DNA of 64,000 nucleotides from Somniosus microcephalus. Lineage: Eukaryota. Made by a program: the position numbers and the translations under genes. The DNA lies in assembly GCA_052327205.1 (NCBI GenBank), contig CM126213.1:166036001-166100000 (forward strand), in the 5' to 3' direction. How positions within the stretch are numbered: the first letter of the stretch is position 1; every line of letters starts with the position of its first letter. The notes under the pieces were generated by a model, which saw nothing but the letters and a program-made list of their open reading frames with translations, did no database searches and had not been told where the DNA came from. This document shows positions 1 through 63,890 of this stretch, one piece after another.

Positions 1-994
1 TTTTTTCCCAACAGCAGTCATTCATTCATTCTCTAGCACAAACCACTTCCCAATACGATGAACAGAAAAAGACGACATTTTTATATTCATCAATCAAAAT
101 CACTTACCATTAGGACTGTGCCAATTAGTCAAACAAAACAAATTACTTACCTAATCATTTAAATCAATTTAACTAATTGTTTTATTGCACAACCCTAGCC
201 AACATGGCACATACAGCTCTACACACACTGAATGGCGTCATACATATTCCATTCTCAGCAAAGTGCTGAAGTGGTTGCAAATATTTTTTTTCAAAAAGAC
301 CAAAAAGGGATCTTTTCCCATCTTCCCTTGCTTGTGTCTTCCAGCATCTCACACAGCATCCAGTCAACCTGCTCCCAATGCTGCCACAGTGAGCGTTGGG
401 AAGCAATTCAGTTGTGAAGAACGTCCCAGCTGAATCTAATGTGTCCTCACCCAGCACCCAGAGAGAGCCACTCCTCAGCAAGAGTCCTTGGAAAGCTATC
501 GTGAGCATGAACCCTGGCTGATGTTTCCTGCCAATCGCTACACTGCCAACACTGCTCTGAGACAGTCTTTTAGGAGATGCATGAATAATAGGGGCACAAG
601 TGTTGACTCGCTCCAATTATCCTTCCTTCCTGTGGAGGAAGCGACCTGGCCTCGCTGTGTGGGGTAAATTACAACCACAGGCATAAATAAATACCAGTCT
701 AAGGCACAACAAATTACTGCTCTACCACACTGTGCCATATCCACTGCTTTTTCCCTGAACTAAATTCAACAGCAAGAGTAGTTGAGTATTAGCTGAAAAA
801 AGTGAACAAATGGATGATTTATACATGCAATGGGATGAGGCTTTGTTCCCTTAGATTATCCTGCATGTCCTTCTTAGGCTCAATACTATGAGAAACTTTG
901 AGATACAGATGTGGTTTAAAATAGTTTATGCTGCAAATGATAAATCCCTTCCCCTTTGAAACTGATTTTATAGCCAGCCACAAAAAAATGACTC

Positions 995-10728: not shown

Positions 10729-11875
10729 CTAGAAGTGGCTTGCTATCAGCCGTTGACGGACGGCCCTTGCAGTTTCAACATTGTGGGCCTCCCTCCCGCC
10801 TTGGTGCTGCTGATGATCATCCTCCTCCTCTGGTGGTGCTCCAAGGCCTGGTGGCATTGGCTGGGTCCTGAGGATTGCCAGGTTATGCAGCATGCAACAC
10901 ATAACTATGAAGAGGGAGACTCGCTCAGACGAGTACTGCAGGGCTCCTCCTGAGTGGTCCAGACAGCGGAACCATTGCTTGAGCACGCCGATCGTCTGCT
11001 CAATGATGTTCCTGGTGGCGAGATAGCTCTCGTTGTACCGCAGCTCAGCAGGGGTGTTGGGGTTACAGAGCGGTGTCATCAGCCAGGTGCACAGTGGATA
11101 ACCCTTGTCCCCTAGGAGCCAACCACTTGGGTGATGCGGTGCCTGAAAAAGTTCTGCCACAGCAGTCTGGCGCAGGATGAATGCATCGTGGCTGCTGCCA
11201 GGATAACGGGCATTGACAGCGAGTATCAGCTGTCTGTGGTCACAGACCAACTGGACGTTTAAGGAGTGGAATCCCTTGTGGTTGCGGAAATCCTCTGCAT
11301 TCTCATGTGGTGCACGCAATGCCACATGCGTGCAGTCAATGGCGCCCTGCACCATGGGGAAGCCCGCTATCCTCGCAAAGCCCAATGCGTGTTCATATTG
11401 TTTGGCCCGGGTCATCAGGAAAGAGATGTACTGGCGTCTCCTTTTATAGAGGACATTTGTGACCTGACGGGTGCAGCAATGGACCATGAACTGGGAGATA
11501 TTGGCGATGTCCCCAGTAGCTGCTTGAAAGGAGCTGGTGGCATAAAGGTTCGGAGCCACTGTGATCTTCACTGCCACCGACAGACGTCCTGGTCCTCAGT
11601 AAAGGCTGCAGATCTGGCTGCAGCAGGTGGCAGAGCTCAGTGACCACCTCCTTGCTGAAGCGCAGCCTGCGCAAACACTGCTCCTCAGACAAATTAATGT
11701 AGGAGAATTGTTGGCAAAATACCCTGGGAGGGCAAGGTCTCCTGTACAGAGGCCTGTTGGCCCTCCTCCGTCTGGCCATGATTGCCACTCTCTCTCTCTG
11801 CGTCTCTGTGGCCTCCGAATCTGCAGGCACAGGACGACGCCCTGAATCAGTGCAGCCCCCAAAGTCTCTTGGCAA
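10729..11875 (-). pseudogene. Harbinger (HARBI1-like, DDE_Tnp_4) transposase, frameshifted near 11580
   Basis: Motifs CLRRLRFSKE, GAIDCTHV, SLNVQLVCD, ARYPGSSHDAFIL, LLGDKGYP, RNIIEQTIGVLK, CCMLHN. Two overlapping ORFs (11444-11875 and 10729-11577). Confidence 0.92.
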
Positions 11876-26806: not shown

Positions 26807-26893
26807 AAAACAGATTAATTATCACCCTGTCCCCTTCTCTTGGCTCCTTGACACATTATGAAAATTCTTTTCTGCTCAGCCGGTCAGTGATTG

Positions 26894-27226
26894 CAGGAAA
26901 CTTTTTTTAATCCGGCACCGACGGGACCAATGTGGTGCCGGTTCATAAAAAATTCCGGATAACCGAACGCTATAGTAAAAGATAGGGAGAGCTAAGAGCT
27001 CCGTATAAAGCAACAAACCCTGTTGCTTAGCAACAGGTTCAGAACAATGCCACAAGTTCCAAGCGTCTCTGTAGCTTAGCAACAGCTGCAGCCACACCCT
27101 TGCACAGCAACAGATGGAGGAAGGCAAGTACAATATGAAGTAAAACTTACTTGAAACTACTCCTGAATTTTGCCGGTTAACCGAGATTTCTGGTTATTTA
27201 GGTGCCGGTAAATCAAAAGTTTCCTG
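26894..27226. mobile_element. Tc1/mariner (pogo/Tigger-type) MITE, copy 1
   Basis: TIRs CAGGAAACT/AGTTTCCTG; flanks TG and TA; related copies at 29084 and 54162. Confidence 0.82.
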
Positions 27227-28282
27227 TAGTATATTCTGACAAGTGAGGAGACTGGCCCTTTGAGCCAGTCATTATTTTTTAACCACTTCAGGAAGTATGT
27301 TTCTGAACATCTTTGGGCCATCAACAAGAAAGAAGTGGAAAAATTAGGAGTGCCACACATAGGGGCATCTATTTACATTCAAAAGTTACCTACAACGCCA
27401 CCTTCTGCTTTAAAATCAGGATTGGTCTCTAACAAACTGAACTGATTTATTACTGGCATTTCAATGGAAAGACGTTGTAATCTACATCAGCCATCATTAT
27501 ACACCTAGGTCAAGACATGTTTAAAAGGTGCTCTGTTGGGCCTCCAGAGGATTTCATGAACTTACTAACAACTTATTTAATCTTTTAAGATAGTTTGTGC
27601 TCTCACCCATCCTTACAATCCCTTTAAAATTACCAGTAAAATTACCAGTGAGGCCTGGAGCTCTGCACGCCAAGAGCTGATTGGAAAGGTTGATTAATAC
27701 TGCCTGGTTGCGTATTCAAGTACTGTATTCAATTTCTCCCTTTTCCCCATTACATATAAGCATGAACTAGCTTATTCATAAAATGCTTATTTGTAACTCA
27801 GCCTTGAACTTTGGGTCATCTGTTTATTTGCACACAAACATTGCTCTACTGATAGAAAATTAAAATTCCAGTTGACTTGACAGACATGACTGCAGAACAT
27901 TTAGCAGAGTAAAATCCAGTGATTAAGAGAGAAATTTAATCACTTTAGAGTTTACACAACTTCGATTCTGTTCCATTTCCTCAATCTAGAAGTATCAGAC
28001 AAAATATGGAAAGAAACAGATTCACTAAAAGTTTGCAGTTTGGGAATTGAGCCACATGAATTTATTTAATTGAGTTCTCTAGTTCTGACAATATGCATTT
28101 ACAATACAGAAAATAAGATTTTTCCTCCCAAATAGTTGCTTGGGAAGGTTTTCTCACCTCCACTCTACACACCATTCCTAGTTTTCTCCCCTTTCTTGCC
28201 CCTCCTCACCTGCAGATGATGATTCTTGCTAAAGTGCTGTTTCACAGACTCGAGCAGCTTAAATACCATACCTAAATAGTCA

Positions 28283-30290
28283 TTCATAGGAACCGGAGGA
28301 GGCCATTCAGCCCTGAGTCTGTTCCTCCATTCCATTAGATCATAGCTAATCTTTACCTTAACTCCATTTATCCACTTTTGTTCTATATCCCTTCCTAACA
28401 AAAATCTCAATCTAACTCGGTCTTGAAATTTTCAATTGACCTTGCAGAGACAGCCTTTTAGGGAAGAATTCTAGATTTCCACTACCTTGTGTGTGAAAAA
28501 AGTGCTCCCTGATTTCACTTCTAAATAGCCTAGCTCTAATTTTATTATGCCCCCTTGTTCTGGATACCCCCACCAGAAGAAATAGCTTTGCCATATGTAC
28601 CATATCAAATCCCTTTAATATTTGAAATACCTCGATTAGGTCACCCCTCAAATTTCTAAACTCAAGGTAAGACAAGTCAAGATTATGCAACCTCTCCTCA
28701 TAATTTAACACTTTAAGCCCCAATATCATTCTGCTGAATCTCCGCTGCATCTCAAGGCCAATATATCCTTCCTGAGGTACAGTGCTCAAAACTGAACACA
28801 GTACTCCAGACGGGGTCTGACCAACACTCTGTACAACTGAAGCATCACCTCCTCTCCTTTGTATTCCAGCACGCTTGAGATAAAGGCTGACATTCCTTTT
28901 TGATTATTTTTGTACCTGTACACCAGCTTTTAGTGATTTTGTACCTGGATGTCCAAATTAGAGCTAGACTATTTAGAAGTGAAATCAGGGAGCACTTTTT
29001 TCACACACAAGGTAGTGGAAATCTAGAACTCTTCCCTAAAAGGCTGTCTATGCTAGGTCAATTTTGTTCACTCACTTAATCTACAGGAAACTTTTGATTT
29101 ACCAGCACCTAAATAACCGGAAATCTCGGTTAACCGTCAAAATTCAGGAGTAGTTTCAGGTAAGTTTTACTTCATATTGTACTTGCCTTCCTCCATCTGT
29201 TGCTGTGCAAGGGTGTGGCTGCAGCTGTTGCTAAGCTACAGAGACGCTTGGAACGTGTGACCATTGTTCTGAACCTGTTGCTAAGCAACAGGGTTTGTTG
29301 CTTTATACGGAGCTCTCAGCTCTCCCTATCTTTTACTATAGCGTTCGGTTATCCGGAATTTTTGATGAACCGGCACCACGTCGGTCCCGTATTTAAAAAA
29401 GTTTCCTGTATGTCCTTTTCTAACTTCTTGCTCACATCTACACAACTTACTGTACCTTCTAACTTAATGTCATCTGCAATCTTTGATATACAACTCTATA
29501 CCTTCATCCAACTCAATATATATGATGAAAAGCTGAAATATCAGTACAGATCCCTGGGGAACATCACTGGTCACACCCTGCCAATTAGAGAATATTTATT
29601 TTATCCATACTCTCTGTCTACTACATTCCAACCAATTACCAAACTATGTCACAAGGTTAATTCCAATTTCATGCACTCTCATTTTTGCTAATAATCACTT
29701 GTGTGGAACTTCATCCAATGCCTTCTGAAAATCCATGTGCACAACATGCAAAGACACTCTCCTACCCACCATGCAAATGACATCCTCAAAAAATTCAACT
29801 AGATTAGTCAGACCTGACCTACCTGTTACAAATCCATGCTGACACTCTCTGATCAGCTCATACTTGTCCAAGTGCTCAGTCACTCTGTCCCTGATCATGA
29901 ATTCCAGTAACTTCCCCACAATTGATATTAAACTGACAGGTCTATAGTTTCCCATTTCCTTTAAAAAAAAATGGCAAGGCACAATTCATGAATCGAACGT
30001 ACTTCGGAAACTTAGGCAAATTATGGAAAATTACACATTTGCAATTTCCTCACCTATTTCTCAATTCCCTGGGATAGAAACCATCAGGTCTTGGTGATTT
30101 CTCTATCCGAAGTCCCATTATTTTCTCCCATTACCTTTTTTTTTAAAAACTTAGATTAAATCCAGTTTCTCCCCTTGACTTATTTTTTAGGTACCCATGT
30201 TACCACTGATATTTTGTCCTCTTCGCCTACTGTGAAAATGGTTGTGTTCATTTGAAAAGTCTGCCATTTCCTTTTTTTTCCCCATTATAG
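28283..30290 (-). mobile_element. Old CR1 LINE fragment interrupted by an inverted duplication and a MITE
   Basis: Minus-strand GNYRPVSL, QHGFVTGRS, DFQKALDEVPH and LRGDLIEVF. Confidence 0.85.
29084..29408. mobile_element. Tc1/mariner-type MITE, copy 2 (inverted relative to copy 1)
   Basis: TIRs CAGGAAACT/AGTTTCCTG with TA on both sides. Confidence 0.85.
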
Positions 30291-33013: not shown

Positions 33014-35771
33014 ACGTAGAAACATAGAAGATAGGAGCAGGAGTAGACCATTCGGCCCTTCGAGCCTGCTCCGCCATTCAATGAGATCATGGCTGATCAT
33101 CCAAATTCAGTACCCTGTCCCTGCCTTCACCCCATATCCCTTGATCCCTTTAGCCTTAAGAAATATATCCAACTCTTTTTTGAATATATTTCATGAACTG
33201 GCCTCCACCGCCCTCTGTGGCAGAGAATTCCACAGGTTCACCACTCTCTGGGTGAAGAAATTCCTCCTCATTTCAGTCCTAAATGGCTTACCCCTTATCC
33301 TTAGACTGTGACCCCTGGTTCTGGACTCCCCGGCCATCAGAAACATCCTTCCTGCATCTAGTCTGTCCAGGCCTGACAGAATTTTATAGGTTTCGATGAG
33401 ATCCCCTCTCAATCTTCTAAACTCCAGTGAGTATAAGCCCAATCGACACAATCTCTCCTCATACGTCATTCCTGCCATCCCAGGTATCAGCCTGGTGAAT
33501 CTTCGCTGCACTCCTTCCATGGCAAGAACGTCCTTCCTCAGGTAAGGCGACCAAAACTGCACACAATACTCAAGGTGCGGTCTCACCAAGGCCCTGTACA
33601 ACTGTAGCAAGACATCCTTGTTCCTGTACTCGAACCCTCGTGCTACGAAGGCCAACATACCATTTGCCTTCTTAACCGCCTGCTGCACCTGCATGCTTAC
33701 CTTCAGCGACTGGTGCACAAGAACACCCAGGTCTCGTTGCACTTCCCCTTCTCCCAATCTATTGCCATTCAAATAATAATCTGCCTTCCTGTTTTTGCCA
33801 CCAAAGTGGATAACCTCACATTTATCCACATTATAGTGCATTTGCCATGTTTCTGCCCAATCACCCAATCTGTCCAAATCATACTGGAGTTTCACGACAT
33901 CCTCCTCACAGCTTACCCTCCTACCCAGCTTTGTGTCGTCTGCAAATTTGGAGATATTACATCCAATTCCCTCATCCAGATCATTAATATATATTGTGAA
34001 CAGCTGGGGTCCTAGGACCGATCCTTGCGGTACCCCACTCGTCACTGCCTGCCACTCGGAAAATGACCCGTTTATTCCAACTCTTTGCTTTCTGTCCGCC
34101 AACCAGTTCTCTATCCAAGTCAATACCTTGCCCCCAATCCCATGTGCCTTCATTTTGCACGCTAATCTCTTATGTGGGACCTTATCAAAAGCCTTCTGAA
34201 AGTCCAAATACACCACATCCACTGGTTCTTCCTTATCTATTTTACCAGTTACATCCTCAAAAAATTCCAGTAGATTAGTCAAGCATGATTTACCTTTTGT
34301 AAATCCATGTTGACTTTGTCCGATCCTGTCACTGCTTACCAAGTGCTCTGCTATTACATCTTTTATAATAGACTCTAGCATTTTCCCCACTACCAATGTC
34401 AGGCTTACCGGTCTATAATTCCCCGCTTTTTCTCTACCACCTTTTTTGAATAGTGGGGTAACATTAGCTACCCTCCAATCCATGGGTACCGTTCCAGAGT
34501 CTATAGAGTTCTGGAAGATGACCAGCAATGCATCTACTATTTCTAGGGCCACTTCCTTAAGTACCCTGGGATGTAGATTATCAGGCCCTGGGGATTTATC
34601 GGCCTTCAGTCCCATCAATTTTCCTAACACCATTTCCCTACAAATACTGATTTCTTTCAGTGCCACCCTTTCATCAGGCACCATGTTCCCCGGCATCTCT
34701 GGGAGGTTATTTGTGTCCTCCTTTGTGAAGACAGAACCAAAGTATGAATTTAGTTCGTCTGCCATTTCTTTGTTTCCCATTATAAATTCCCCTGATTCTG
34801 ACTGTAAGGGACCTACGCTTGACTTCACCAATCTTTTTCTCTTCACATATCTATAAAAGCTTTTACAGTCAGTTTTTATGTTCCCTGCAAGCTTACGCTC
34901 ATATTCTATTTTCCCTTTCTTAATTAATCCCTTTGTCCTCCTTTGTTGAATCCTAAACTGCTCCCAATCCTCAGGATTATTGCTTTTTCTGGCCAATTTA
35001 TATGTCGTCTCCTTGGATCTTATGCTATCCCTAATTTCCCTTGTTAGCCACGGTTGAGTCACTTTTTTTTTATGCCAAACTAGGATGAACAAATTCTGTA
35101 GCTCATCCATTCAGTCTTTGAATGTTTGCCATTGCCTATCCACCGTCAACCCTTTGAGTGCCATTCCCCAATCAATCCTACCCAACTCGCTCCTCAGACC
35201 ATTGTAGTTTCCTTTATTTAAATTGAGGACCCTAGTCTCTGAGTCAACTACTTCATTCTCCATCTTAATGAAGAATTCGATCATATTATGATCGCTCAGA
35301 CCCAAGGGGCCTCGTACAACAAGATTGCTAATTAATCCTTTCTCGTTACATAATACCCAGTCTAAGATGGCCTGATCTCTGGTTGGTTCCTCGACATATT
35401 GGTCCAGGAAACCATCCCGTAAATACTCCAGGAATTCCTCCTCCACAGTATTTACTAATTTGGTTGGCCCAATCTATATGTAGATTAAAATCACCCATGA
35501 TGACTGCTGTGCCCTTATTGCACGCTTCTTTAATTTCCCTTTTAATGCCATCCCCAACCTCCGCCTTACTGTTGGGAGGTCTATATACCACTCCCACTAA
35601 TGTTTTTTTCCCCTTAGTATTTCTCAATTCTACCCATACAGATTCCACATCATCAGAGCTAATATCCTTCATTACAATTGTATTAATCCCTTCTTTAAAC
35701 AGTAATGCTACCCCACCTCCCTTTCCTTTTTGCCTATCTTTCCTGAATATCGAATACCCCTGGATGTTGAG
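33014..35771 (-). mobile_element. Young CR1 LINE (partial APE endonuclease plus RT), nested in Rex1
   Basis: 639-aa ORF 33191-35110 with intact ISKFADDTKL; endonuclease motifs IMGDFN and SDHN upstream; few stops or frameshifts; (CATAGAA) tail at ~33015-33028. Confidence 0.96.
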
Positions 35772-35815
35772 TACCTAAGATCACCAAGGTAACAGGCCTC
35801 AATGACTATCGTCCT

Positions 35816-36955
35816 GTGGCTCTAACATCCATAGCCATGAAGTGCCTGGAAAAGCTGGTCATGATACACATAAGCAGCATCATATCCGATTCCTTGGACC
35901 CGTTCCAGTTCGCATATAGGGCGAACAGGTCTGTAGACGATGCCATCTCCCTAACACTACACACTGCCCTGGAACACCTAGACACGAGGGACACTTACGT
36001 CAGACTGTTGTTCATTGATTACAGTTCTGCATTTAATACTATTATTCCCTCCAAGCTGGTCCTGAAACTGAGGGACCTAGGCCTGGGCACCCCCATCTGC
36101 AATTGGATTCTGTATTTCCTGACTGGTAGGCCTCAAGTGGTGAAAATAGGGAACAACACCTCATCCACTCTGGTCCTCAACACCGGAGCGCCACAAGGCT
36201 GCTGCCTCAGTCCTTGGCTGTACTCTCTGTTTACACATGACTGTACAGCCATACACAGCAATAACCGGATTATCAAGTTTGCCAACAACACCACAGTAAT
36301 TGGCCTGATAAGCAACGATGACGAGACGGAGTACAGAGGTGAGATAGTCCAGCTGATGAGATGGTGCAATGACAACAACCTTGCCCTGAACGTTGGCAAG
36401 ACTAAGGAGCTCATCGTGGACTTCAGAAGCCACCGAGGGAACCATCGCCCCATCAGCATAGACAGGACACCAGTGGAAGTCGTCAGTTGCTTCCGATTCC
36501 TGGGACTGCAGATCTCTGATGACCTGGCCTGGAACCATAATACTGAGGCTATGCTGAAGAAGGCACACCAGCGCCTTTACCCTCTGCGGTGCCTGAGGAA
36601 ATGCGGCATAAGCACACAGTGGCTTGTGAACTTTTACCGCGGCACCATAGAGAGTGTCTTGACGAGTGGTGTCAATGTGTGGTATGGTAACACCACTGCA
36701 CAGAACAAGAAAGCCATCCAGAGAGTTGTGAATACGGCAGAAAAGATCATCGGGTGTGCACTCCCGTCCATCGAGGAGATCTTCCAGACCAGGTGCCGGA
36801 ACAAGGCCCGCTCCATCATCCAGGACCCCAATCACCCTGGGCACAAACTGTTCTCCCTCCTGCGGTCCGGACGTCGGTACTGCAGCATCCGAACCAGGAC
36901 CAGCAGGTTTAAGAACAATTTCTATCCACAGGCAGTGCGCCTACTGAACTGCTAA
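35816..36955 (+). pseudogene. Rex1 reverse transcriptase ORF, catalytically dead
   Basis: 379-aa ORF with [34 protein letters not shown] and LRSGRRY. The catalytic FADD reads FANN. Confidence 0.9.
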
Positions 36956-39739
36956 TCGCACTGCCCCATATATTATAGTGATATGTTTATGTAAATATAT
37001 ATATTATGCTTATATTACCATATATTTATATTACATTACTATTATTTCCAGTGGTAATGAGGCTTTTTTGCACTATTCATCATATCCTGCAACTTGGACT
37101 GTTATTGCTATACTTTTTGCTTATTTGCTTATTGTTTTTATTTATACTTTTTATTTTTTTGCTTTTATATTTATATGCTTGTATTGTGGGAGTGAGTGGG
37201 GAGTAAGCATTCCATTGTACTAGCTACATATGGCAATAAAATGATCTTGAATCTTGGTACTATGTTAGCTGTTCTCCAGTCCTCTGGCACATCCCCTGTT
37301 GCCAGAGAGGTTCTGAAAATTTGTGTTAGAGCCCCTGCAATCTCCTCCTTTGCCTCACATAGCAGCCTGGGATACATCTCGTCCGGGCCTGGGGATTTAT
37401 CCACTTTTAAGCCTGCTAAAACCGCTAGTACCCCCTCCCTCTCGATGCTAATATGTTCAAGTATATCACAGTCCCCCTGCCCGATTTCTATGTCCACATC
37501 GTTAGCAAGCACATCGACAAACAGCAGAGAAATCCTCAAATAAGAGCTGGAAAGAGTACAAGATAAGTATATTCCTTTAAGGCAAAAAGAGCATGCATCA
37601 AATAATGGAGTTTTATAGATAAATAGAGATTGATATTGACCTGAAACTTGAAAGGGAGGCATATGATAAAGTTAGGATTGTCTCATTTACTTTAGCAGAA
37701 AGGACATGGCTTCTGTGGGCAGCAGCATAGTAAAGTAAATGAAGCTACATCCATGCTTCCATGGAAGACTGAGCAAACTGCTTCCTGGTGAGGAGGAAGG
37801 AATAAAAAGGCAATCTCAGACCACTCTCGCCACTGCATCGGTGATGCCTGATATCAGTCAAACCTCCTTTTAAGCACTGACCTGTATGTAGCACAACAGG
37901 AGACAAACAGATCAGTAACATTTATGAAGGAGATTTCATCCTTCAAAAAAGTCACCAACTGCAAAGCAAATTGTACGGTATAGGTGCTACACATTTAAAA
38001 AAGAAATTGGAGTATTTTTTAAAAATCAGAATCTACTTTGGGATGGGTGAGGGCAGAGTAAAATATATATGAGGAAACACTTACTTTCAAGAATGAACAA
38101 ACATGTCTACAACATAAAAGAGATCACAACCCAACCAAAACTAAGCATTATGTTTTCAGTGCAAGACAACTCCTTAAATAAATGAACTTTAGGAAAACCA
38201 CTGAGACAACCTTTAAGAAATTCTGAAAATTAAATCTGCAGCATGCCAAGAAAATATTGCATAGATTTTATTAGCTACCTGACTTTAAAATAAAAACAAA
38301 AAGGGCTTACAGATGAAGTCTGAACACTGCAAATCTGCACGCACAAGTTTTGATTCCCTTCTCAAGAAACTGTTGTTGGCAGTATTAGAGCAGAATCACA
38401 ATTTAAAAATCATGTGCCAGTGGTTCCCCCCGACCCCCCACCCCACCCGCAGTGGCTCAGCAAATGCATGAAGCAGCATGGTGGCGAAACATCCACAGCA
38501 GCAGGCTCCTAGATTCTTTTACCGAGTAAGCCAATCTTATCCAGGCATCAGTGGCAGCACAAAGATCGGCCACAGAGCCCTCCAACTAGACATACACTGC
38601 TCACTTGGGCAACTTACTGAAGGGCTGCAATAAAATCACGTCCTAGTACAAAGCTATTGCTGTCAAGCTCGGAGGAGTCAACAGTTAAGCTTGGAAGAAG
38701 AAATACAAACTGTACACAACTTATCCTCTCCCTAATAATCCTATCTGTACATAAAACATTTATATCCTCTACTCACACTCAGCACCTGACAAAACAATCT
38801 AAAGCAGCCTATTTTTTCTAAGTAGTCACCACTTCCTTAGTAATGAACATTAAGTCATTCTGTCTTGCCCAACACTGCAGCAAGTTCAGCTCTCTGAAAA
38901 TTCTACTCCAATCTAGCGCACATAAATGTCACCAAGTAATATTTGTTGAAATTTATCAATTCATTTACGATAACTCCATTTCACACTGCCATCCTGCCCC
39001 ACCAGGAAGTTACTTTCACCTCTTTTTAAGTCCCCACACATCAGTCAAACCCCAGCAGAGGTGGAGAAAGGCATTCTAGTCCTAGGTTTCTGCTAATTTA
39101 ACTCTGTGGCCAAGTAAAAAAAGAGCAAACTTGTATTTTATATAGCGCCTTTCACGGTCTGAGAACGTCCCAAAGTGCTTCACAGCCAATAAAGTATGTA
39201 GAAGTATAATCACTACTGTAATGTAGGCGTATTAAATTATTATGGAATCATTTAGCACCGTCTCGGACACGATGCCAGGAATTCATCTTGTGGGAAATCT
39301 GCCACCTATTACCTTGCAGTGCCTATCCAAGGAAACCAACCCTGATGCCAAACTTTTAAAAAGCAATCTATCGTTAATTAGCCCATTACAAATTTGTCTC
39401 TTATTTTTGCTGAGGTGTTAAGTTGATCAACTACATAAGTTTTGTAGACACATGGTTTGATATGCTTGCAGTTTTTACTCAACCCAAAAGGATGAAAAAG
39501 AATTGGTGAAAACTGCAACTTTTAAGTTACTGAAGTGATGCATGAACAGACAAAGGAAACTGCTTTTAAGCTGTTAGAAAAGGATGCTAGTTTTTGTAAA
39601 GAATTATGAAGATTTGTTAAAATCTTCAGTGCCAGAGTGCTAAGTTGTCTCTACACTATCCATTCGTGGAAATTCTCTTCCTTTCTCTCTACCCATTCAA
39701 AACAGAGAATTTAGGACCATACTATCTGCAAAATTAACC

Positions 39740-46642: not shown

Positions 46643-46695
46643 CTAGCTGGAGTGCCCGGCGGTGCCGAGGCTTTTTCGAGGGCATGTTGTTGTTG
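46643..46695 (-). mobile_element. Probable Helitron 3' terminus
   Basis: Minus strand reads hairpin CTCGGC-ACC-GCCGGG, an 8-nt spacer, then CTAG followed by T. Confidence 0.55.
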
Positions 46696-47416
46696 GAAGA
46701 GAGCGAGCGACTGGGGGGGGGGGGGGGGAAGAGAGCGAGCGACTGGGGGGGGAAGAGAGCGAGCGACTGGGGGGGGGAAGAGAGCGAGCGACTGGGGGGG
46801 GAAGAGAGCGAGCGACTGGGGGGGGAAGAGAGCGAGCGACTGGGGGGGGGAAGAGAGCGAGCGACTGGGGGGGGAAGAGAGCGAGCGACTGGGGGGGGAA
46901 GAGAGCGAGCGACTGGGGGGGGAAGAGAGCGAGCGACTGGGGGGGGAAGAGAGCGAGCGACTGGGGGGGGAAGAGAGCGAGCGACTGGGGGGGGAAGAGA
47001 GCGAGCGACTGGGGGGGAAGAGAGCGAGCGACTGGGGGGGGAAGAGAGCGAGCGACTGGGGGGGAAGAGAGCGAGCGACTGGGGGGGAAGAGAGCGAGCG
47101 ACTGGGGGGGAAGAGAGCGAGCGACTGGGGGGGGAAGAGAGCGAGCGACTGGGGGGGAAGAGAGCGAGCGACTGGGGGGGAAGAGAGCGAGCGACTGGGG
47201 GGGAAGAGAGCGAGCGACTGGGGGGGAAGAGAGCGAGCGACTGGGGGGGAAGAGAGCGAGCGACTGGGGGGGAAGAGAGCGAGCGACTGGGGGGGAAGAG
47301 AGCGAGCGACTGGGGGGAAGAGAGCGAGCGACTGGGGGGGAAGAGAGCGAGCGACTGGGGGGGAAGAGAGCGAGCGACTGGGGGGGAAGAGAGCGAGCGA
47401 CTGGGGGGGAAGAGAG
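46696..47416 (+). repeat. G-rich minisatellite, ~23-24 bp unit (G)7-8-AAGAGAGCGAGCGACT, running into the gap
   Basis: About 30 visible units that differ only in G-run length. Confidence 0.97.
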
Positions 47417-47916
47417 NNNNNNNNNNNNNNNNNNNNNNNNNNNNNNNNNNNNNNNNNNNNNNNNNNNNNNNNNNNNNNNNNNNNNNNNNNNNNNNNNNNN
47501 NNNNNNNNNNNNNNNNNNNNNNNNNNNNNNNNNNNNNNNNNNNNNNNNNNNNNNNNNNNNNNNNNNNNNNNNNNNNNNNNNNNNNNNNNNNNNNNNNNNN
47601 NNNNNNNNNNNNNNNNNNNNNNNNNNNNNNNNNNNNNNNNNNNNNNNNNNNNNNNNNNNNNNNNNNNNNNNNNNNNNNNNNNNNNNNNNNNNNNNNNNNN
47701 NNNNNNNNNNNNNNNNNNNNNNNNNNNNNNNNNNNNNNNNNNNNNNNNNNNNNNNNNNNNNNNNNNNNNNNNNNNNNNNNNNNNNNNNNNNNNNNNNNNN
47801 NNNNNNNNNNNNNNNNNNNNNNNNNNNNNNNNNNNNNNNNNNNNNNNNNNNNNNNNNNNNNNNNNNNNNNNNNNNNNNNNNNNNNNNNNNNNNNNNNNNN
47901 NNNNNNNNNNNNNNNN
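47417..47916. other. Assembly gap (500 N)
   Basis: Run of N. Confidence 1.
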
Positions 47917-52431: not shown

Positions 52432-52817
52432 GTGGGTTCAAGTTCCAGGCCAGATATTTGAGCACAAAAATCTAGGCTGACACTCCAGTGCAGTACTGTG
52501 GTGCCGTCTTTCACATGTGACGTTAAACAGAGGACCCATCTGCTCTCAGGTGGACGTAAAAGATCCCACGGCACTATTTTGAAGAGGAGCAGGGGAGTTA
52601 TCCCCGGTGTTCTGGCCAATATTTATCCCTCAATCAACATCACTATAAACAGATTATCTGGTCATTATGTTTGTAGGAGCTTGCGGTGCGCAAATTGGCT
52701 ACCATGCTTCCTACATTACAACAGTGACTACATTTCAAAAAGTACTTCATTTGCTGTAAAGTGCTTTGGGACGTCCAGTGGTTGTGAAAGGCTATATATA
52801 AATGCAAGTCTTTTTTT
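52378..52817 (+). mobile_element. SacSINE1-type DeuSINE, full length
   Basis: A box TGGCTCAGTTGG, B box GGTTCAAGTTCC, Deu domain GGTGGACGTAAAAGATCCCA.GGCACTA, L2-like tail GGCTATATATAAATGCAAGTC. Confidence 0.9.
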
Positions 52818-53196
52818 CTTTGTGTGTAGAAGTGTTTCCTAATTTCATTCCTGAAAGGTCTGGCTCTAATTTTTAGACTATGCCCCCTTGTCCTGGAATC
52901 CCCAACCAGCCAAAATAGTTTCTCTCTACCATATCTGTTCCCTTTAATGTCATGAAAACTTCAATCAAATCACCCTTTAACCTTCTAAATTCTAGGGAAT
53001 ACAACCCTAGTTTGTGTAATCTCACCCTTGGAGTCCGGGTATCATTCGGGTAAACCTACACTGCACTCCCTCCAAGGCCAATATATCCTTCCTAAGGTGT
53101 GGTGTCCAGAACTGCTGACAGTACGCCAGGTGTGCTCTAACCAGGGCTTTGTATAGCTGCAGCACAACTTCTACCCCCTTGTATTCTAGTCCTCTA

Positions 53197-54007
53197 TCAA
53201 ATCAAATCAAATCAACTTTTGTCATTGTTAGTGCACAAGTGCAGTACAACGAAATGTAGGCCTGCGGCTTCCGAGAGTGTACATTTGGATTAAGACATTT
53301 AAACATTCAACATACATTTGGCTTGTAGTATATTAACATAAATATAACCATAATAAAGTGCATTGGCAGATATGCAGGCTTTAGAGTTTATTTGTGGAGT
53401 TCAGTAGGATGACAGCCCTGGGAAAGAAGCTGTTCCTAAATCTGGTCGTACGGGTGCGAATGCATCTGTAGCGTCTCCCAGATGGCAGGAGGGCGAACAG
53501 ACTGTGGCTGGGGTGGGTAGGGTCTTTGATGATGGACCGTGACCTCCGTAGACAGCGTTTCTGGTATATGTGCTCTATGGTCGGTAGCCGGGTGCCGGTA
53601 ATGCGTTGGGCAGTTTTGACTACCCGCTGCAGGGCTTTCCGGTCATAGTAGCTACAGCTGCCATACCATACTGTGATACAGTTTGTCACGATGCTCTCTA
53701 TTGTGCAGCGGTAAAAGTTAGAGAGGATCAGGGGTGACAGATTACATCCCTTCAGCCTCCTTAGGAAATATAGGCGCTGCTGGGCCTTCTTCACCAGAGA
53801 GGTGGTGTTGAGGGACCAGGAGAGGGCTTCCGTGATGTGGACTCCGAGGAACTTAAAGCTGTCCACCCTTTCCACCACAGCCCCATTGATGTGGATGGGG
53901 GTGTGACTTCCGCCTTTGGACTTCCTGAAGTCCACAATGATTTCTTTTGTTTTCTTGGTGTTAAGGGCCAGGTTGTTATCGGCGCACCACTTCACGAGAT
54001 GCTGGTG
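53197..54007 (-). mobile_element. Rex1/Babar LINE 3' fragment
   Basis: WCADNNLALNTKKTKEIIVDFRK...LPSGRRYR...FFPRAV; tail (ATTTG)n. Confidence 0.92.
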
Positions 54008-54161
54008 AAGGCCAGCATTATCTAAATATAAAGGCCAGCATTTCATTAGCCTTTTTGATTATTTTCTGTACCTGTCCATGACATTTTAATGATCTATGTA
54101 CCTGGACCCCCAAGTCTCTTTGGACCTCCACTGTTTTTAGCTTTTCACCATTTAGAAAATG

Positions 54162-54479
54162 CAGGAAACTCTCGATTTACCGGCACCCAAACAACCGGCA
54201 AAATTCAAGAGTAGGTTCAGTTAAGTTTTTCTTCATATTAGTGGCCGTTTCTTGATTCTTGGCTGTGTAATCAGGGTTCCTGCACTTGTTGCTAAGCAAC
54301 AGGGACGCTTGGTCTGTGGCCGGGCTTCTTGCACCTGTTGCTAAGCAACAGGGAAGCCTGGATTTGTTGCTGTGTACGGAGCTCTCGTACCTTTTAACTA
54401 TAACTCTCTGTAATCCGGACTTTTTGATAAACCGGCACCACGCCGGTCCAGTCAGTGCCGGATAAAAAAAAGTTTCCTG
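54162..54479. mobile_element. Tc1/mariner-type MITE, copy 3 (diverged subfamily)
   Basis: TIRs CAGGAAACT/AGTTTCCTG; flanks TG and TA. Confidence 0.8.
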
Positions 54480-54767
54480 TACCGTTTTATTATTTTTAAG
54501 CCCAAAGTGGATGACCTCACATTTGCCACATTTTTGCCTATTCATTTAATCTACCAATATCCCTTTGTAATTTTGTCCTTTCATCTACACTGCCTACCAT
54601 GCCGCCTATCTGTGTCATCGGCAAATTTGGATATGTGGCTTTCTATGCCATCATCTAGGTCGTTAATAAATACAGTGAATAGTTGAGGCCACAAACACAG
54701 ATCCCTGCGGGACACCACTAGTCACACCTGCCAATTAGAGTACCTACCCATTATTCCTACTCTTCAT

Positions 54768-55158
54768 AATAATAATAATTCAACTTTGCACAAGTACACG
54801 AACAACGAAATGTGATCTTGCAAGCTCCCATGAGTCTAGTACAAATAACATTAACATTAAACGTAAATAGCACCGTCCTGGGAGAAGCAAAGCCGCTGCG
54901 TCGGTGCGCGCCGCCATTCCATTTCCACCATTCCTCCTGTCCGACAATCTTCAGCCCAACGCCCGGGCCTGCTCACCAGCCGCCCCTCCCGGGACTCCTT
55001 CCGTGACCTTCTCACCAACCGCCCCTCCTCGGGGCTCCTTCCGTGACCTTCTGCATCTGGTCTTCCCTGGTGGTCACCCCTCCAGGTACTAACCAGGCCT
55101 GGCTCTGCTTAGCTTCCAAGCCTTGCCAGTGACCCTGTCCCTAGTCTCAGGAACAGGG
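54768..55158 (-). mobile_element. 5S rRNA-derived SINE (SINE3-type) with Rex1-like tail
   Basis: 5S internal control region at 55047-55120 (AAGCTAAGCAG..CCTGGTTAGTAC.TGGA.GGG.GACC); tail homologous to the Rex1 3' end; (TTA)n terminus; TSD CTTCAT. Confidence 0.78.
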
Positions 55159-55420
55159 CTTCATCTCCTGGCGCTCAGCTAATTTCCTAACCAGGTCAAT
55201 AATTTGCCTTCAATTCCATGGGCTTCAACCTTAGTCAACAGTCTCTTATGAGGAACTTAATCAAATGCCTTCTGGAAGTCCATCCAAGTAACATCTATAG
55301 ACTTTCCCCTAATCACCTCTTCAAAAAATTCAATCAGATTTGTCAAGCATGACCTACCTTTCACAAATCCATTGATCCTTGAAACACAGTAACATACTTC
55401 TTTAGTGATGAAATACTAGA

Positions 55421-55728
55421 AAGAACTTGCATTTATGCAACACATTTCACGACCTCAGGGCGTCCCAAAGTGCTTTGCAGCCAATGAAGTACTTTTGAAG
55501 TGTAGTCACTGTTGCGATGTAGGAAACATAGCAAAAATTTGCACAAGTGAGCTGAATGACCAGATAGCATGTTTTCTGTATGTTGATTGAGGGTTAAATA
55601 TTGGCCTGGACACCAGGGAGAACTCCCCTGCTCCTCTACAAAACAATGCCATGGGATCTTTCACGTCCACCCGAGAGCAGACGTTTAACATCTCATGCAA
55701 AAGACGGCACCTCCGGCAGTGCAGCACT
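55421..55728 (-). mobile_element. SacSINE1-type DeuSINE fragment
   Basis: Reverse complement of the Deu domain and tail seen at 52378-52817. Confidence 0.85.
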
Positions 55729-56385: not shown

Positions 56386-56788
56386 AATATTATAATGAAG
56401 CCACTAGTTTGATGGGACCCCATCCAATTATTGACATCCGCCAGCCTGACTGTAGCTGTCAAATAGACCGAACTGAAATAGAATGACAAAGACAACAATG
56501 TGGCAGAACCACTGAATGACTCTGGCTAACTGTATATAATTCTCTTTAACGATGTTCTAACACCAGCCGAAACCTGTACCATTGTGTCAGGCATTACAGC
56601 CTTTTGTATATAGAGTTTGCATGTACGGGGCGTGGGCCCTTTAAGAGCGCGGGAAAACACGGGCAAACGCGATGACGTCACGTCGCAAACCACGGGACTG
56701 CCCAGGCAGTCCTCGTGGCATCTCCGTTGAATAAAGACCTGTTTGATTGTTCTCGTGTCGATCTCCGTTCACAAAAGAAGAGCACAGC

Positions 56789-57705
56789 ATGGAAGAGAAC
56801 GCCGTTTCCCTAAAGCTACCGCAGTTCTGGGAGCAGCAAGCGCCCTCGTGGTTTATTCAGGTCGAGGCCCAGTTCGCCCTGAGGAACATCGATGCGGATC
56901 AGACCAAGTACCTTTATGTGGTCTCCGCACTCGACAGCTCGACCGCCTCTCGGATCGTCAGCCTCCTCGAAAACCCCCCAACGGAGCGCAAGTATGAAAC
57001 CCTCAAAGCGCGGTTACTGCAAGTTTTCGGGCTCACGAAATCGGAGCGCGCCCGTCGATTACTCGCTATGCCCAGGCTTGGGGACTTCAAGCCTTCAGAG
57101 TTGATGAGCCAAATGCTCACACTCCTGGGCTCAGAACAGGAATGTTTCCTATTCCGCGAGATTTTCCTCAGCCAAATGCCTGAACAGGTACAAGCTGCCG
57201 TGGCCAGGTCTGAAGTTGAAGACTGCGCAACACTCGCTGCGGAGGCGGACAAAATTTTCGCTGTAACTCGGCAGTACTGCGCCGCCACGAGGCACCCATC
57301 CCCCCCAGATGCCGCCCAAGCTCGTCAGCCTGCTGGACTGTGTTTCTACCACGCGCAGTTCGGCGCGAAGGCGAAGCGTTGCCGCCCTCCCTGCAGTTTT
57401 CCCCCCAAAAAACTGACACTGCGACCACCGAGGAACGGGTCTAACGGGCACCCCGCGGCCGCGATGGCCATCAGCAGCACGGGAAAATTGCTGTTCATCA
57501 CCGATACTCTCTCTGGTCGTCGTTTTCTGTGCGACACCGGAGCGCAGTGCAGCATTTTACCCGCATCCGCCCTCGATGTGCAGATGGGGAATCACGGCCC
57601 CACCCTTGAAGCGGCCAATGGCAGAGCAATTCGGACCTTCGGCAGACGTCGAGTGGAGGTGTGCCTCGGGGGGCAACGTTTTCACTGGGATTGTGTTACG
57701 GCCAA
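56789..57705 (+). pseudogene. gag: Gag (CHCC knuckle) plus aspartic protease
   Basis: LKLPQFW...WFIQVEAQF; CFYHAQFGAKAKRCRPPC (CX2HX9CX3C); protease FLCDTGAQCSILP. Confidence 0.88.
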
Positions 57706-60513
57706 ATTTCCCAGCTCCTCCTCGGTGCGGATTTCCTGTGTGCCAACAGCCTCCTGGTCGACATCAGGCACCGGCGGCTGATCAACGCAGCAACTTTTAA
57801 TTCTCTTTCGTGTTACCGCAGTAACACTACATCACGCACCGTCTCCTGTGCGTTCCCAACTCCTGATGAGTTCGCTCACCTGCTCGGCGAATTCCCCGAC
57901 CTGACAAGACCCACGTTCTCCTCCAAAGCCACGAAACATGGCGTGGAACACCACATCACCACCAACGGCCCCGGCGCCTGGAACCTGGCGGTCGCAAAGG
58001 CGGAGTTCACAACCATGGAACGGTTAGGGATTATTCGCCAGTCGAATAGTCCCTGGTCTTCACCCCTCCATATCGTCCCGAAGCCTGGTGGCGGATGGCG
58101 GCCATGCGGCGACTATCGACACCTAAACGACGCCACCACTCCCGATCGGTACCCGATCCCCCATATCCAGGATCCTCTGCCCACGTGGCATGGAACACCG
58201 TGTTCTCTAAAGTCGACCTCATCCGGGGCTACCACCAGGTCCCAGTTCATCCACAAGACGTCCAGAAGGCCGCAGTCATCACCCCATTCGGCCTCTTCGA
58301 GTTTTTACGAATGCCGTTTGGGTTAAAGAGCGCCGCCCAGGCTTTCCAACGCCTGATGGACTCCGTGCTGCGGGACCTCAAGTTCCTCTTCGTCTACCTG
58401 GATGACATTCTAATTGCCAGTCCTACTAAGGAAGAACATACCTGTCACCTACGCACCCTTTTTCGACGCCTCAGCCAACACGGCCTGATTATCAACCCGG
58501 CCAAGTGTCAGTTTGGCCTGCACCAAATTGACTTCCTGGGGCATCGCATCACCTCAGAGGGAGCGGTTCTTTACCTTCGAAGGTAGAGGCGGCGACATCC
58601 TTTCCACGCCCCCAGAACATGAAGGCCCTGCAGGAATTACTAGGCATGGTAAACTTTTACCACCGTTTCGTGCCGAAGGCTGCACTACTCATGCAGCCCC
58701 TGTACGAGGCCCTCAAGGGCAAGACTGGCAAGAACCCGGTAGACTGGACGGATGACATGGCCCGAGTGTTCGCCGACACAAAAAGCGCCTTAGCCAATGC
58801 GACTATGCTGGCGCACCCGCTGCCAGGAGCCACCATCGCCCTCACCACCAACGTGTCGGACTACACAGTCGGTGCCGTGCAACAGCTGTGGGTGAACGGG
58901 ACGTGGCAGCCGTTGGCATTCTTCAGCCGTCAACTACGGCAGAACGAGAGCATACAGCACGTTCGACCGGGAGTTGCTTGCCCTTTTTCTGGCCATCCAC
59001 CATTTTCAGTTCCTTCTGAAAGGACGTCGTTTCACCGCCTTTGTGGACCATAAGCCGCTGACCCTTGCAATGTCCAAGACCGCCGAACCGTGGTCAGCCC
59101 AACAGCAGCGTCAACTGACCTACATATCCGAATTCACCACGGATATACGGCATATGGCCGGTAAGGACAACCTGGTGGCAGACTGCCTCTCCCGCGCGTT
59201 CGTCAATACGGTTCATTTGGGCATCGACTACGCCCTCATGGCAGCGGACCAAGCCTCAGACCCGGAAGTCCAAGCTTACAGAACGGCCATCACTGGCCTC
59301 CAGTTGGCCGACGTCAAGTTCCATTCGGCAGGTACCACGCTGTTGTGTGACGTCTCCGTACAGGATCCTTGCCCTGTCGTGCCGGTCGTCTGGCGCCGCA
59401 AAGTGTTCGACGCCATACATGGGTTGTCACACCCTGGAATGAAGGCCTCTCAGAAACTGATGTCAGCGAAATTTGTATGGCATGCATAAAGATGTCCGCG
59501 ACTGGGCCAACACCTGCGTGGTCTGCCAAAAGGCCAAGGTACAGCGCCACATCAAAGCTCCGTTGGCCACCTTCACAGTTCCGGAGCGACGTTTTGACCA
59601 TGTCAACGTGGACCTGGTAGGACCACTCCCACCCTCCCATGGTTTTTCACACATCCTGACCATGGTTGACCGCACCACCAGATGGCCAGAGGCGGTCCCC
59701 CTGTCATCCACTACTTCGGCGGACGTGGCCAGGGCGTTCATTTCCTCCTGGATCGCCCGTTTCGGAGTGCCCGCAGATATTTCGTCGGACAGGGGACCGC
59801 AGTTTTCCTCCGAACTCTGGAATGCAGTGGCCCAAGGACTCGGTGTCAAATTACACCGCACCACAGCCTACCACCCACAGGCAAATGGCCTCTGCGAACG
59901 CTTCCACCACTCAATGAAAGCTGCCCTGAGGGCCAGCCTCCAGGACGCTGGATGGGCAGACAAGCTAACGTGGGTCCTGTTGGGCCTTCGCACAGCCCCC
60001 AAAGACGACCTTCACTCTTCATCAGCGGAACTCGTGTATGGTCAGCCGCTGCGAGTCCCAGGGGACTTCCTACCAACATCGACGGAGCCCTGGTCCGTGT
60101 CTGCCCAGCTTGCTAGTCACCAAGAGGCGGCCAGATGTTTCGCACCGGTGCCCACTTCGCACCACGGGCTGCAGAGGTCACACGTTCCCACGGAGCTTCA
60201 CAAGGCTGAATATGTTTTTTTTCGCCATGACGCACATAGGGATCCGCTCAAGGCCCCATATACCGGTCCCTTCCGCGTGTTGGAAGCAGGGGACAAAACC
60301 TTCACGGTAGATGTCAGTGGTAAACCGGACCACATTTCGGTCGACCGCTTAAAGCCAGCACATTTGGACCTCGATCGCCCCGTCGAGACAGCACAACCGC
60401 CGAGACGGGGTCGGCCACCCATCGTCGTTACGGCAGACCAAATGCGACCGCCCGCCGCCCTGCAGCCTCCGCCTCGAGAGTACAGGAGTCGTTCTGACAG
60501 GCTCGTCGCTTGA
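57706..60513 (+). pseudogene. pol: Pol (RT, RNase H, integrase), multiply frameshifted
   Basis: [65 protein letters not shown]. Confidence 0.92.
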
Positions 60514-60849
60514 CTTTGTCCGTTAAAGCGAATTCTGGGGGGGCGCATGTGGCAGAACCACTGAATGACTCTGGCTAACTGTATATAATTCTCTTTAACG
60601 ATGTTCTAACACCAGCCTAAACCTGTACCATTGTGGTAGGCATTACAGCGTTTTGTATATAGAGTTTGCATGTACGGGGCGCGGCCCCTTTAAGAGCGCA
60701 GGAAAACGCGGGCAAACGCGATGACGTCATGTCGCAAACCACAGGACTGCCCAGACAGTCCTCGTGGCATCTCCGTTGAGTAAAGACCTGTTTGATTGTT
60801 CTCGTGTCGATCTCCGTTATTCGTAGGAATTCGTTAATTCCTACAAGAA

Positions 60850-61858
60850 GCCATTTCAACCACCTCCAGCGTGATCCCACCACCAAACGCATCTTCCCCT
60901 CACCTCCCCTTTCAGCATTCCGTAGGGACCGCTCCCTCCGCGACACCCTAGTCCACTCCTCTACCAAACCCAGCACCCCTTCGCCCAGCACCTTCCCGTG
61001 CAAGCACAGGAGATGCAACACATGCCCTTATACCTCCCCCCTTCCTACTGTCCAGGGCCCCAAACACCCCTTCCAGGTGAAACAGCGATTTTGTACTTCT
61101 TGCAATTTAGTATACTGTATTCGCTGCTCACGATGTGGTCTCCTCTACATTGGGGAGACCAAACGCAGATTGGGTGATCGCTTTGCGGAACACCTCCGTT
61201 CAGTCCGTAAGGGGGACCCCGAGCTCCCGGTGGCCTGTCACTTTAATTCACCGCTCCATTCCCACTCAGCCCTCGGCCTCTTGTATTGTTCCACGGAAGC
61301 TCAGCATAAGCTCGAGGAACAGCACCTCATCTTTCGATTAGGCACTCTACAGCCCTCTGGACTCAACAGAGTTCAACAATTTCAGATCATAACCTCGGCC
61401 CCTATCACACATAAATACATGTTATGCATGTAAAAAAAATATATATATATGTATATTCTTTTTTTATCCACACTTTTTGTTTGGCTTTTTTTCTCCCCTC
61501 CCACATGGCAGCTGTCCTTCACTCTGCCAGCGCAATTCACACTTCATCTAGAGCCATCCTTTGTTCCGTAACCTGTCCCATTACCATCTCCTTTTGCCTT
61601 GAATATCTCTCAATGTCTCTTAATCTCTCCTGCTTTCTATCCCATCACTGACCTTCCCTTTTGTTCTTTCATCCCTCCCCCTTTTCCCAGCCCCTAAACT
61701 TACTTTCCATTTCCTGCTTTTTTCCAGTTCTGACAAAAGGCCTTCAACCTGAAACGTTAACTCTGTTTCTCTCTCCACGGATGCTGCCTGACCTGCTGAG
61801 TTTTTCCAGTGTTTTCTGTTATTTCGGATTTCCAGCATCCGCAGTATTTTGCTATTGT
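60850..61858 (+). mobile_element. Penelope-like element 3' fragment (GIY-YIG endonuclease plus terminal repeat)
   Basis: PLSAFRRDRSLRDTLV...CKHRRCNTC...NLVYCIRCSRCGLLYIGETKRRLGDRFAEH...PSGLN; hammerhead-like core at 61730-61760. Confidence 0.9.
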
Positions 61859-62648: not shown

Positions 62649-63494
62649 GAAGTCTCCGGTACAAAGACTGTGTATGTGTGCTGGCGAGTCATTTTGCAGC
62701 ACGTGTTGGGTGAGGTCGCAGCTCGAGGAGTATCCAGCTATGTTTTTTTTTTGATTATCTCTTTGGGGGCCTGCTTTTAAAAATAAATAAATCTGTGTAC
62801 TTAATGTGCAGGTGGGTTGCGAACCAGGGGGGGAGCCGGAGTCAGCCTGGAATTGCATTGGTGGGGTTTGCAGGGGGTGGGGGGTGGTGCATTTCCCACA
62901 GTTGAACGAAGCGGATTGGCTGTCTGATTTTGCATTCGCCGTTGACATAATGGGCCACATGAACAAACTGAATTTAAGACTGCAAGGGAAGGGGCTTTTT
63001 GCTCATGATTTGCAGTTCAGTGTGAAGTCATTTATGATGAAGTTACTCCTTTTCTCTAGTCAGATAGAAAACAAGCAGTTCAGCCATTTTCCCACTTTGC
63101 AACAGATTGCTGTTTGCGATGAAAAGCACACAACGTCACTACTTGACTTGCACGCTGAATTTTCTCGCCGATTCCAAGATGTTAAAATGATAGAAAATGA
63201 TCTGTCTTTGGTATCCTCGCCATTCGCATTTGATGCTGACAATGCTCCATGTAAGCTCCAACACAAGTTCATCGATCTGCAGGGTGACTCATTGCTTGCG
63301 GTGCAATTCAAATCGGTGCCGCTTCCTGGGTTTTACGCCTCTGTCAATGAGCAAAGCTTTCCAAAGATCAAGGCTCATGCCCAGAAGATACTTGTGCTGT
63401 TTGGATCAACATACACATGCGAGCAGATATTTTCTGGGGTGAAATTCAATAAATCAAGACATTGCTCATCAATGAGCAATGACCACCTTGCAGC

Positions 63495-63890
63495 AGTCCC
63501 ACTCCAGGGACTTGAGCATATAAACCTAGGCTGACATCAGTGCAGTACTGAGGGAGTGCTGCACTATCAGACGTGCCAGCTTTCGGATGAGACGTTAAAC
63601 CAAGGCCCCCGTCTGCCCTCTCAGGTGGACGTAAAAGATCCCATGGCACTATTTCAAAGAGGAGCAGGGGAGTTATCCCCAGTGTCCTGGCCAATATTTA
63701 TCCCTCAATCAACATCATAAAAACAGATTATCTGGTCATCACGTTGCTGTTTGTGGGAGCTTGCTGTGTGCAAATTGGCTGCTGCGTTTATAACAGTGAC
63801 TCCACTTCAAAAGTACTTCATTGGTTGTAAAACGCTTTGCGACGTCCGGTGGTCGTGAAAGGCGCTATATAAATGCGAGTCTTTCTTTCT
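63495..63890 (+). mobile_element. SacSINE1-type DeuSINE, 5'-truncated, nested in the hAT ORF
   Basis: Deu domain and tail as at 52378-52817. Confidence 0.9.

Follow-up and report, generated by a model that had tools for sequence, protein, structure and literature searches.

The 391-bp insert discussed here raises the question whether it is one copy of a SINE family or only a chance joining of pieces, and which LINE contributed its parts and moves it. The window is the whole stretch of DNA that was analysed, 64 kb in length, and all coordinates refer to it.

Insertion and target site

The whole SINE copy lies on the minus strand at 54768-55158. Among 24 listed sequencing runs, four were compared in detail: X1 (organism A), X23 (organism B, RNA), X9 (organism C) and X11 (organism D). 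Organisms E-J, whose shares were 0.07-0.12, do not enter the counts. The 391 bp of the insert were covered end to end in the runs of organisms A, B and C. On the plus strand the hexamer CTTCAT is found at 55159-55164, the 5' side of the element, and again at 54762-54767, its 3' side, as target site duplication (TSD). The insert splits an old CR1 fragment of the reverse transcriptase (RT) region (54480-55372, minus strand), which has the same orientation as the SINE. An earlier note on this DNA had described a 391-bp minus-strand insert inside a CR1 with a 6-bp TSD, and all of these features were found.

After removing the insert and one CTTCAT, the CR1 fragment regained collinearity with two other CR1 copies of the window (near 33.9 kb and 29.6 kb). 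CR1 copies without insert span the site in all four runs compared (joint of 54763 to 55164), these being paralogues and not the orthologous empty site. In CTTCAT, 3 of the 6 letters deviate from those that CR1 usually has at this site (loose-end consensus at 55164), and since the hexamer nevertheless flanks the insert on either side, the target duplication is genuine. A CR1 protein from the window showed 79% identity to Chiloscyllium, 72-77% to Hypanus and about 40-55% to birds and turtles. Because Chiloscyllium and Hypanus are the nearest among the named hits, the host is an elasmobranch and not a salmonid.

The same CR1 also contains a repeat at 54160-54481, which is one of three related MITE-looking repeats of about 330 bp (the others at 26876-27229 and 29081-29410). 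Its internal duplication gave chance miRNA hits; these and the other Rfam matches (E 0.16-9.8) were dismissed as chance. An LTR retrotransposon is located at 56498-60818, with 272-bp LTRs that are 95.6% identical and with gag/pol in several broken frames, gypsy-like by eye. Also judged by eye, open frames resemble a Harbinger-type transposase (10729-11595), a Penelope-type endonuclease (60780-61433) and a hAT-type transposase (62791-63534). A gap of 500 N at about 47417-47916 adjoins a tandem array of ~70-bp units (46695-47416).

Abundance, variants and age of the family

Words of the insert were present in 20 of the 24 listed runs, belonging to 9 studies, and 7 runs hold at least half of them. 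Four of these 7 runs, with a word share of 0.56, comprise 8-35 million letters only. In X1 the summed depth was 3.1e5-7.6e5 in every bin of 54784-55147, compared with 14-28 for single listed contigs. Summed depth exceeded that of single contigs about 10^4 times in X1 and 10^2-10^3 times in X9; these ratios are not copy numbers, and the depth is read indirectly as thousands of copies or more. Full-length elements occur in organisms A, B and C, while all four organisms share the head, the ATGGCG block and the tail. The insert is therefore a copy of an abundant elasmobranch SINE family, not a one-off. A single copy was the main doubt left by the earlier note, and it is removed by the abundance of head, block and tail in all four runs.

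With 391 bp the element is well within the length of a SINE (<1 kb) in the SINEBase definition (PMC3531059). Its dispersal is suggested by one copy with TSD inside CR1 and by one contig of organism D with another flank; this X11 contig aligns over 55015-55160 and runs into other sequence past the 5' end. The insert could be explained as a one-off template-switch chimera, a 5S pseudogene or a satellite unit, as only one copy exists within the 64-kb window and flanks are visible for few copies. But the depth is very high over all modules, diagnostic variants are common to four organisms, the TSD lies inside a CR1, and no head-to-tail (tandem) joint was seen among 15 of 130 joints. We regard all three origins as extremely improbable.

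Between the window copy and the majority form of X1 there are no fewer than 7 listed differences (1.8%), a divergence that points to a young copy.

The middle of the element contains two GC-rich units of ~40 bp (55012-55051 and 54972-55011, minus strand), which are identical to each other at 37 of 41 positions; the duplication proposed for them is thus real. They are followed by a linker (54918-54971), by the ATGGCG block and by a variable segment of 44-55 nt (54837-54886), which may come from either the 5' or the 3' part of Rex1, all on the minus strand. The form of organism D is without 54955-55014 and 54837-54886, so it has one GC-rich unit only and an inferred length of ~290 bp. Its linker is shorter and runs into AAGATGG. 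Loose ends were found in X11 at 54922 and 55015, and that at 55015 joins directly to the linker. A skip of 44-47 nt over 54837-54886 was also seen in organisms A and B, so that the variable segment is missing in D and in some copies of A and B. It is bounded by a 9-bp inverted repeat (54825-54833 / 54876-54884), and the skip in the RNA run could partly be an artefact of reverse transcription at this repeat.

The 5S-derived head

The head includes a 5S rRNA-derived segment at 55047-55116 (minus strand), corresponding to 5S +48 to +117. Positions 43-112 of the element align ungapped with the 5S gene L062 (+48 to +117) at 50 of 70 positions (71%), a score reached by 0/5000 shuffles. The lower limits set for SINE3 are 60% identity to 5S rRNA and a matching length of 60 nt, and this segment lies above both values. 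L062 looks non-vertebrate to us, and so the 71% is probably a lower bound. The Rfam model RF00001 gave 27.8 bits (E 3e-4), under its gathering score of 38, and the match left out positions 1-29 of the model. We placed box A at 55100-55114, the intermediate element (IE) at 55092-55097 and box C at 55067-55084, on the assumption of standard 5S numbering; the three keep the 5S spacing, as the register is ungapped. Against L062, a divergent 5S, the best-kept parts are box C (15/18) and +70..77 (8/8), while box A has 8/15. Organism D matches 5S at two extra positions, 55062 and 55085. The segment with box A, IE and box C that the earlier note had read from the letters alone is hence borne out by a real 5S gene and by RF00001. 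L062 and L074 (G001:C240 and C39) are tandem eukaryotic 5S rDNA arrays with units of 1.2-1.6 kb, located in a mycoplasma bin.

Upstream of this segment the element has a leader of 42 nt which is not 5S (55117-55158, minus strand): it is identical to 5S at only 10 of 42 positions, gave no credible match to another Rfam family, and is covered in all four runs. The head folds with z = -5.25, including an 11-bp hairpin at 55133-55158, and this agrees with the earlier description of a hairpin in place of the 5' part of 5S. In lepidopteran SINE3s, too, the 5S region upstream of the promoter is described as lost or diverged (PMC10886601).

By the spacing of box A, the first base of the element is at the position of 5S +6, which is about where Pol III would be predicted to begin a type 1 transcript. 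The element itself is free of T4 runs, the first one being 297 nt downstream. The cDNA RNA-seq run X23 of organism B has reads on both strands, and among the listed starts no pile of 5' starts at 55158, in a library type that is ill-suited to the question of Pol III transcription. These reads fit copies embedded in longer transcripts and have little bearing on Pol III.

The element might also be a non-autonomous Rex1 derivative driven by Pol II, with the 5S piece as passenger. No discrete transcript appears in the RNA reads, the ATGGCG block has a YY1-like site, and type 1 promoters are said to rely on signals upstream of them and to have little strength once retroposed (PMC3272025), all of which would suit such an element. 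However, its 5' end is at 5S +6, the resemblance to 5S persists in the promoter boxes but not upstream of them, and in X1 and X11 the head is covered at least as deeply as the tail, which is not the pattern usual for 5'-truncated LINEs. So we consider a Pol II-driven derivative very unlikely, and a Pol III type 1 head is the reading followed below.

Rex1-type tail and partner LINE

The element ends with a Rex1-type 3' tail (54780-54836, minus strand) and an (ATT)4 microsatellite (54768-54779, minus strand). A 5'-truncated LINE, Rex1 A, is a separate insertion at 53196-54007 on the minus strand; it carries the PF09004 domain and is kin of the partner LINE. The name Rex1/Babar for A is our assignment from the known domain layout. 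Its protein has up to 78% amino acid identity to relatives, of which the named ones are mostly teleost. Features of Rex1 were taken from the description in PMC6274825, and Rex-Babar is reported in whale shark (PMC8455134).

The last ~100 nt of the SINE were compared with the 3' UTR of Rex1 A (53190-53318), and 0/5000 and 0/3000 dinucleotide shuffles reached the score. The tail also matched the Rex1 locus L007 significantly (4/2000 shuffles). It did not match the second Rex1 of the window (36930-37200; 1567/5000 shuffles reached the score) or the downstream regions of the other Rex1 loci tested, L007 having been tested separately. A and L007 are the nearest relatives among 15 aligned rows (73%, support 84/88), and the tail type is common to both. 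A search for the tail motif with one mismatch gave nothing above control, and no conserved stem-loop was found in the tail (z +1.2). The earlier claim of a tail alignable to Rex1 thus stands by the shuffles against Rex1 A, and its view of Rex1 as mobilising partner probably holds for the subgroup of A. It does not extend to the neighbouring copy as such: SINE tail and A have blocks in common but differ in many places, so A is kin of the partner and need not be the partner.

The window copy lacks 9 nt behind 54785 in its tail, which complete the Rex1 terminal motif in other copies. Most contigs leave the alignment near 54785. Among the sequences that cross this point, the 9-nt insertion was present in 52/52 of the depth in X9, 72/297 in X1 and 5/19 reads in X23; in X11 it was 0/1011, and the loose end there bears the same motif.

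The second 5'-truncated Rex1 (B, 35771-37200) has 394 open codons with RT and PF09004, 54% identity to A and the other tail type. A stretch of 12 nt from the CR1 flank next to Rex1 A recurs at its 5' junction (54008-54019 = 54031-54042), which is probably a target-templated addition.

The ATGGCG block and Rex1 5' ends

The block at 54887-54917 (minus strand) is a probable Rex1 5' end or ORF start, and contains a YY1-like motif. An exact search of a metagenome collection with the 25-mer of its family-majority form gave one hit, L001. The 25-mer match of L001 is there by construction, and the independent point is its context: about 100 nt after the 25-mer follow the Rex1 terminal motif and a microsatellite, with a chance of ~3e-5 by base composition. 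The L001 element (721-880 of MDSQ01121726.1) is a headless element of ~160 bp in AT-rich vertebrate-like DNA, in one copy and with no clear TSD; the source genome is probably a teleost. Its arrangement makes it a candidate for a headless remnant of Rex1 5' and 3' ends, a bipartite non-autonomous element. The tail of L001 is not significantly similar to that of the window copy (492/2000 shuffles), and no second copy of the L001 element was found in five host-contaminated genome bins.

Near-full-length Rex1 contigs (n=5) were obtained from host DNA that contaminates bacterial bins. In 3 of the 5, the 5' end bears ATGGCG in a related YY1-like motif, level with the ORF or shortly above it; one is without ATGGCG and one starts at the ORF. 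Four of the contigs have a single open frame of ~1000 codons. Compared with the three Rex1 5' ends, the block ranked first of 12,680 windows and first of the 22 ATGGCG sites in the 64 kb, above all 60 elsewhere (96.5 against a best of 82.5), the three ends being anchored on the shared hexamer, all distant, and none a full-length Rex1 of the partner subgroup. When the hexamer was left out, the block dropped to rank 2/22 of the ATGGCG sites. Long Rex1 proteins carrying the opening motif were also compared (n=10, of which 9 were retrieved and one is the ORF of L004), and 8 of them begin with MA. In a profile of 8 Rex1 N-termini the reading frame of the block had rank 24/993 with E 3.7, which is not significant.

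In L003 and L008 the block seemed to match upstream sequence, but neither match falls on a Rex1 5' end, and both were rejected. Patterns of block and head and the element itself gave nothing credible in the five host-contaminated genome bins, and 179 and 35 related bins yielded no new Rex1 source. Viral contigs gave no match when searched with the motifs of block, head and tail or with a single Rex1 protein, and one weak locus when searched with the alignment. Much animal host DNA is contained in G001, a bacterial bin of 17.8 Mb with 153 RT matches, and in G002, the bin with the five near-full-length Rex1 contigs; the loci from the two are L004-L006, L008, L015 and L046.

A YY1 site, CAAGATGGC, is reported to open almost all mammalian L1s (PMC5381506), and so the motif is not Rex1-specific. 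The family could therefore be a SINE3 with a Rex1 3' tail only, whose ATGGCG block is a generic YY1-type motif or the 5' end of another LINE. It fits with this that 29 of 30 YY1-like sites in the five contaminated bins head no Rex1 ORF within 1.5 kb, and that the N-terminal profile was not significant; the sole YY1-like site which heads a Rex1 ORF had the top score (31.0, the next being 30.5). Against it, L001 shares 25 contiguous bases with the family majority, far above a motif of 9-11 nt, together with a Rex1 terminus, and none of 30 control YY1-like sites had a Rex1 terminus within 600 nt. A tail-only origin from Rex1 seems unlikely to us. The earlier suggestion that the block comes from the Rex1 5' region gains from the context of L001 and from the three Rex1 5' ends, and is weakened by the profile result and the generic YY1-like motif. 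Given the family, we hold the bipartite Rex1 reading to be quite probable.

Comparison with known SINEs

OS-SINE1, a salmonid DeuSINE, likewise joins a 5S head to the tail of a LINE, RSg-1 (PMC3747384, PMC3472496, PMC3272025, PMC5135761). It belongs to salmonids and has a Deu body, whereas our element is from elasmobranchs and has a GC-rich body of ~130 nt, a replaced leader and a probable LINE 5' block. We take RSg-1 to be of the Rex1/Babar clade, and on this assumption rests the use of OS-SINE1 as precedent for a 5S head with a possibly Rex1-type tail. Three copies of another SINE-like repeat in the window (52441-52819, 55418-55728 and 63495-63890) are presumably of SacSINE1/Deu type; the element, which has ~130 nt between head and block, showed no BLAST hit to them.

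Zebrafish SINE3-1 and AmnSINE1 also have a 5S-derived head with type 1 promoter, but are described with Deu body and CR1-4_DR-type tail and without Rex1 parts (PMC3747384, PMC7245038). According to Kojima 2020, vertebrate SINE3s were moved by the CR1 clade (PMC7245038). The tail of SINE2-5_NV from Nematostella is shared with Rex1-24_NV; its head is from tRNA, and no LINE 5' part is given for it in the available descriptions (PMC3747384, PMC3472496). Ped-1, CoeSINE5, HaSE3 and SINE-1_Pmo are similar in having a 5S head with LINE-derived body or tail, but their LINE is RTE; CoeSINE5 and SINE-1_Pmo are described as bipartite, with parts of 5' and 3' UTR (PMC3747384, PMC5786205). According to Kojima 2018, 5' parts of SINE bodies come only from RTE and Vingi, and ORF-less bipartite derivatives only from RTE, Ingi, Vingi and R2 (PMC5786205). 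The tail of our element instead matches an element with RT and PF09004, which is Rex1-type and not an RTE or Vingi donor.

HE1, SacSINE1 and CmiSINEs have chondrichthyan hosts too, but tRNA heads and tails of HER1, CR1 or L2 (PMC3747384, PMC5499810), and the chondrichthyan SINEs found in the literature are tRNA-headed (PMC5499810, PMC2746220). The element is not a new class, as 5S heads, Rex1 tails and bipartite bodies each have precedent. Their combination, a 5S head with a Rex1 tail and a probable Rex1 middle, was not found described in the open-access literature.

The family may already be named in Repbase, Dfam or SINEBase, which would be compatible with the origin proposed here. Since it is abundant, de novo repeat libraries of sharks probably contain it under some label. 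On the other side, SINE/LINE pair tables of 2012-2013 give only tRNA-headed SINEs for cartilaginous fishes (PMC3472496, PMC3747384), the rows seen of a 2024 table of rDNA-derived elements include none from these fishes (PMC10946416), and Rex does not come up in the text and supplement of Kojima 2018 (PMC5786205). We find an existing name possible but rather doubtful.

Proposed origin and mobilisation

It is likely that the insert is a young copy of a high-copy elasmobranch SINE3, which derives from a Rex1 with lost interior fused to a 5S head and is mobilised by Rex1; a SINE3 with bipartite Rex1-derived body and tail is the best reading. In its origin a Rex1 LINE would have lost its interior, giving a short derivative of 5' and 3' ends. 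This bipartite remnant would then have been fused behind a 5S-derived head, of which the first ~45 nt were replaced by the hairpin leader. An origin by such fusion would follow the model of Kojima 2018.

For mobilisation, TFIIIA and TFIIIC would bind box A, IE and box C, and Pol III would start ~50 nt before box A, a point that differs by no more than 5 nt from the 5' end of the element. The element, free of T4 runs, would be transcribed to its end and beyond, as far as a T-run of the flank. A Rex1 protein of the A/L007 subgroup may then bind the tail and nick the target, and target-primed reverse transcription from the (ATT)n end would leave a short TSD. The cycle is that of established SINE biology.

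Other clades which leave ORF-less bipartite derivatives have a single ORF, and Rex1 with its one open frame is like them. With somewhat more confidence than doubt, we propose that Rex1/Babar is an unlisted clade which forms ORF-less bipartite derivatives and donates its 5' end to SINE bodies, and that the block acts as a second cis-element.

If this is true, cartilaginous fishes would have in this family their first 5S-headed SINE, which would also be the first bipartite-Rex1 SINE known, and the pattern that single-ORF LINE clades leave bipartite derivatives would be extended. The block of 25 nt is identical in the family majority and in L001 and occurs in all variants seen; as a second cis-element it would be required in trans by the Rex1 protein, or would serve as YY1 site to prop up a weak type 1 promoter. 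Because the block is short and kept in all these variants, the role of a LINE 5' part would become testable. According to Kojima 2018, the restriction of bipartite derivatives to RTE, Ingi, Vingi and R2 could reflect either sampling bias or mechanism (PMC5786205). With a young high-copy 5S SINE made from both ends of Rex1, the lists of bipartite donors and of SINE3 movers would each grow by one clade. In addition, the structural variants and the low divergence of the family could give presence/absence markers for the phylogeny of sharks and rays.
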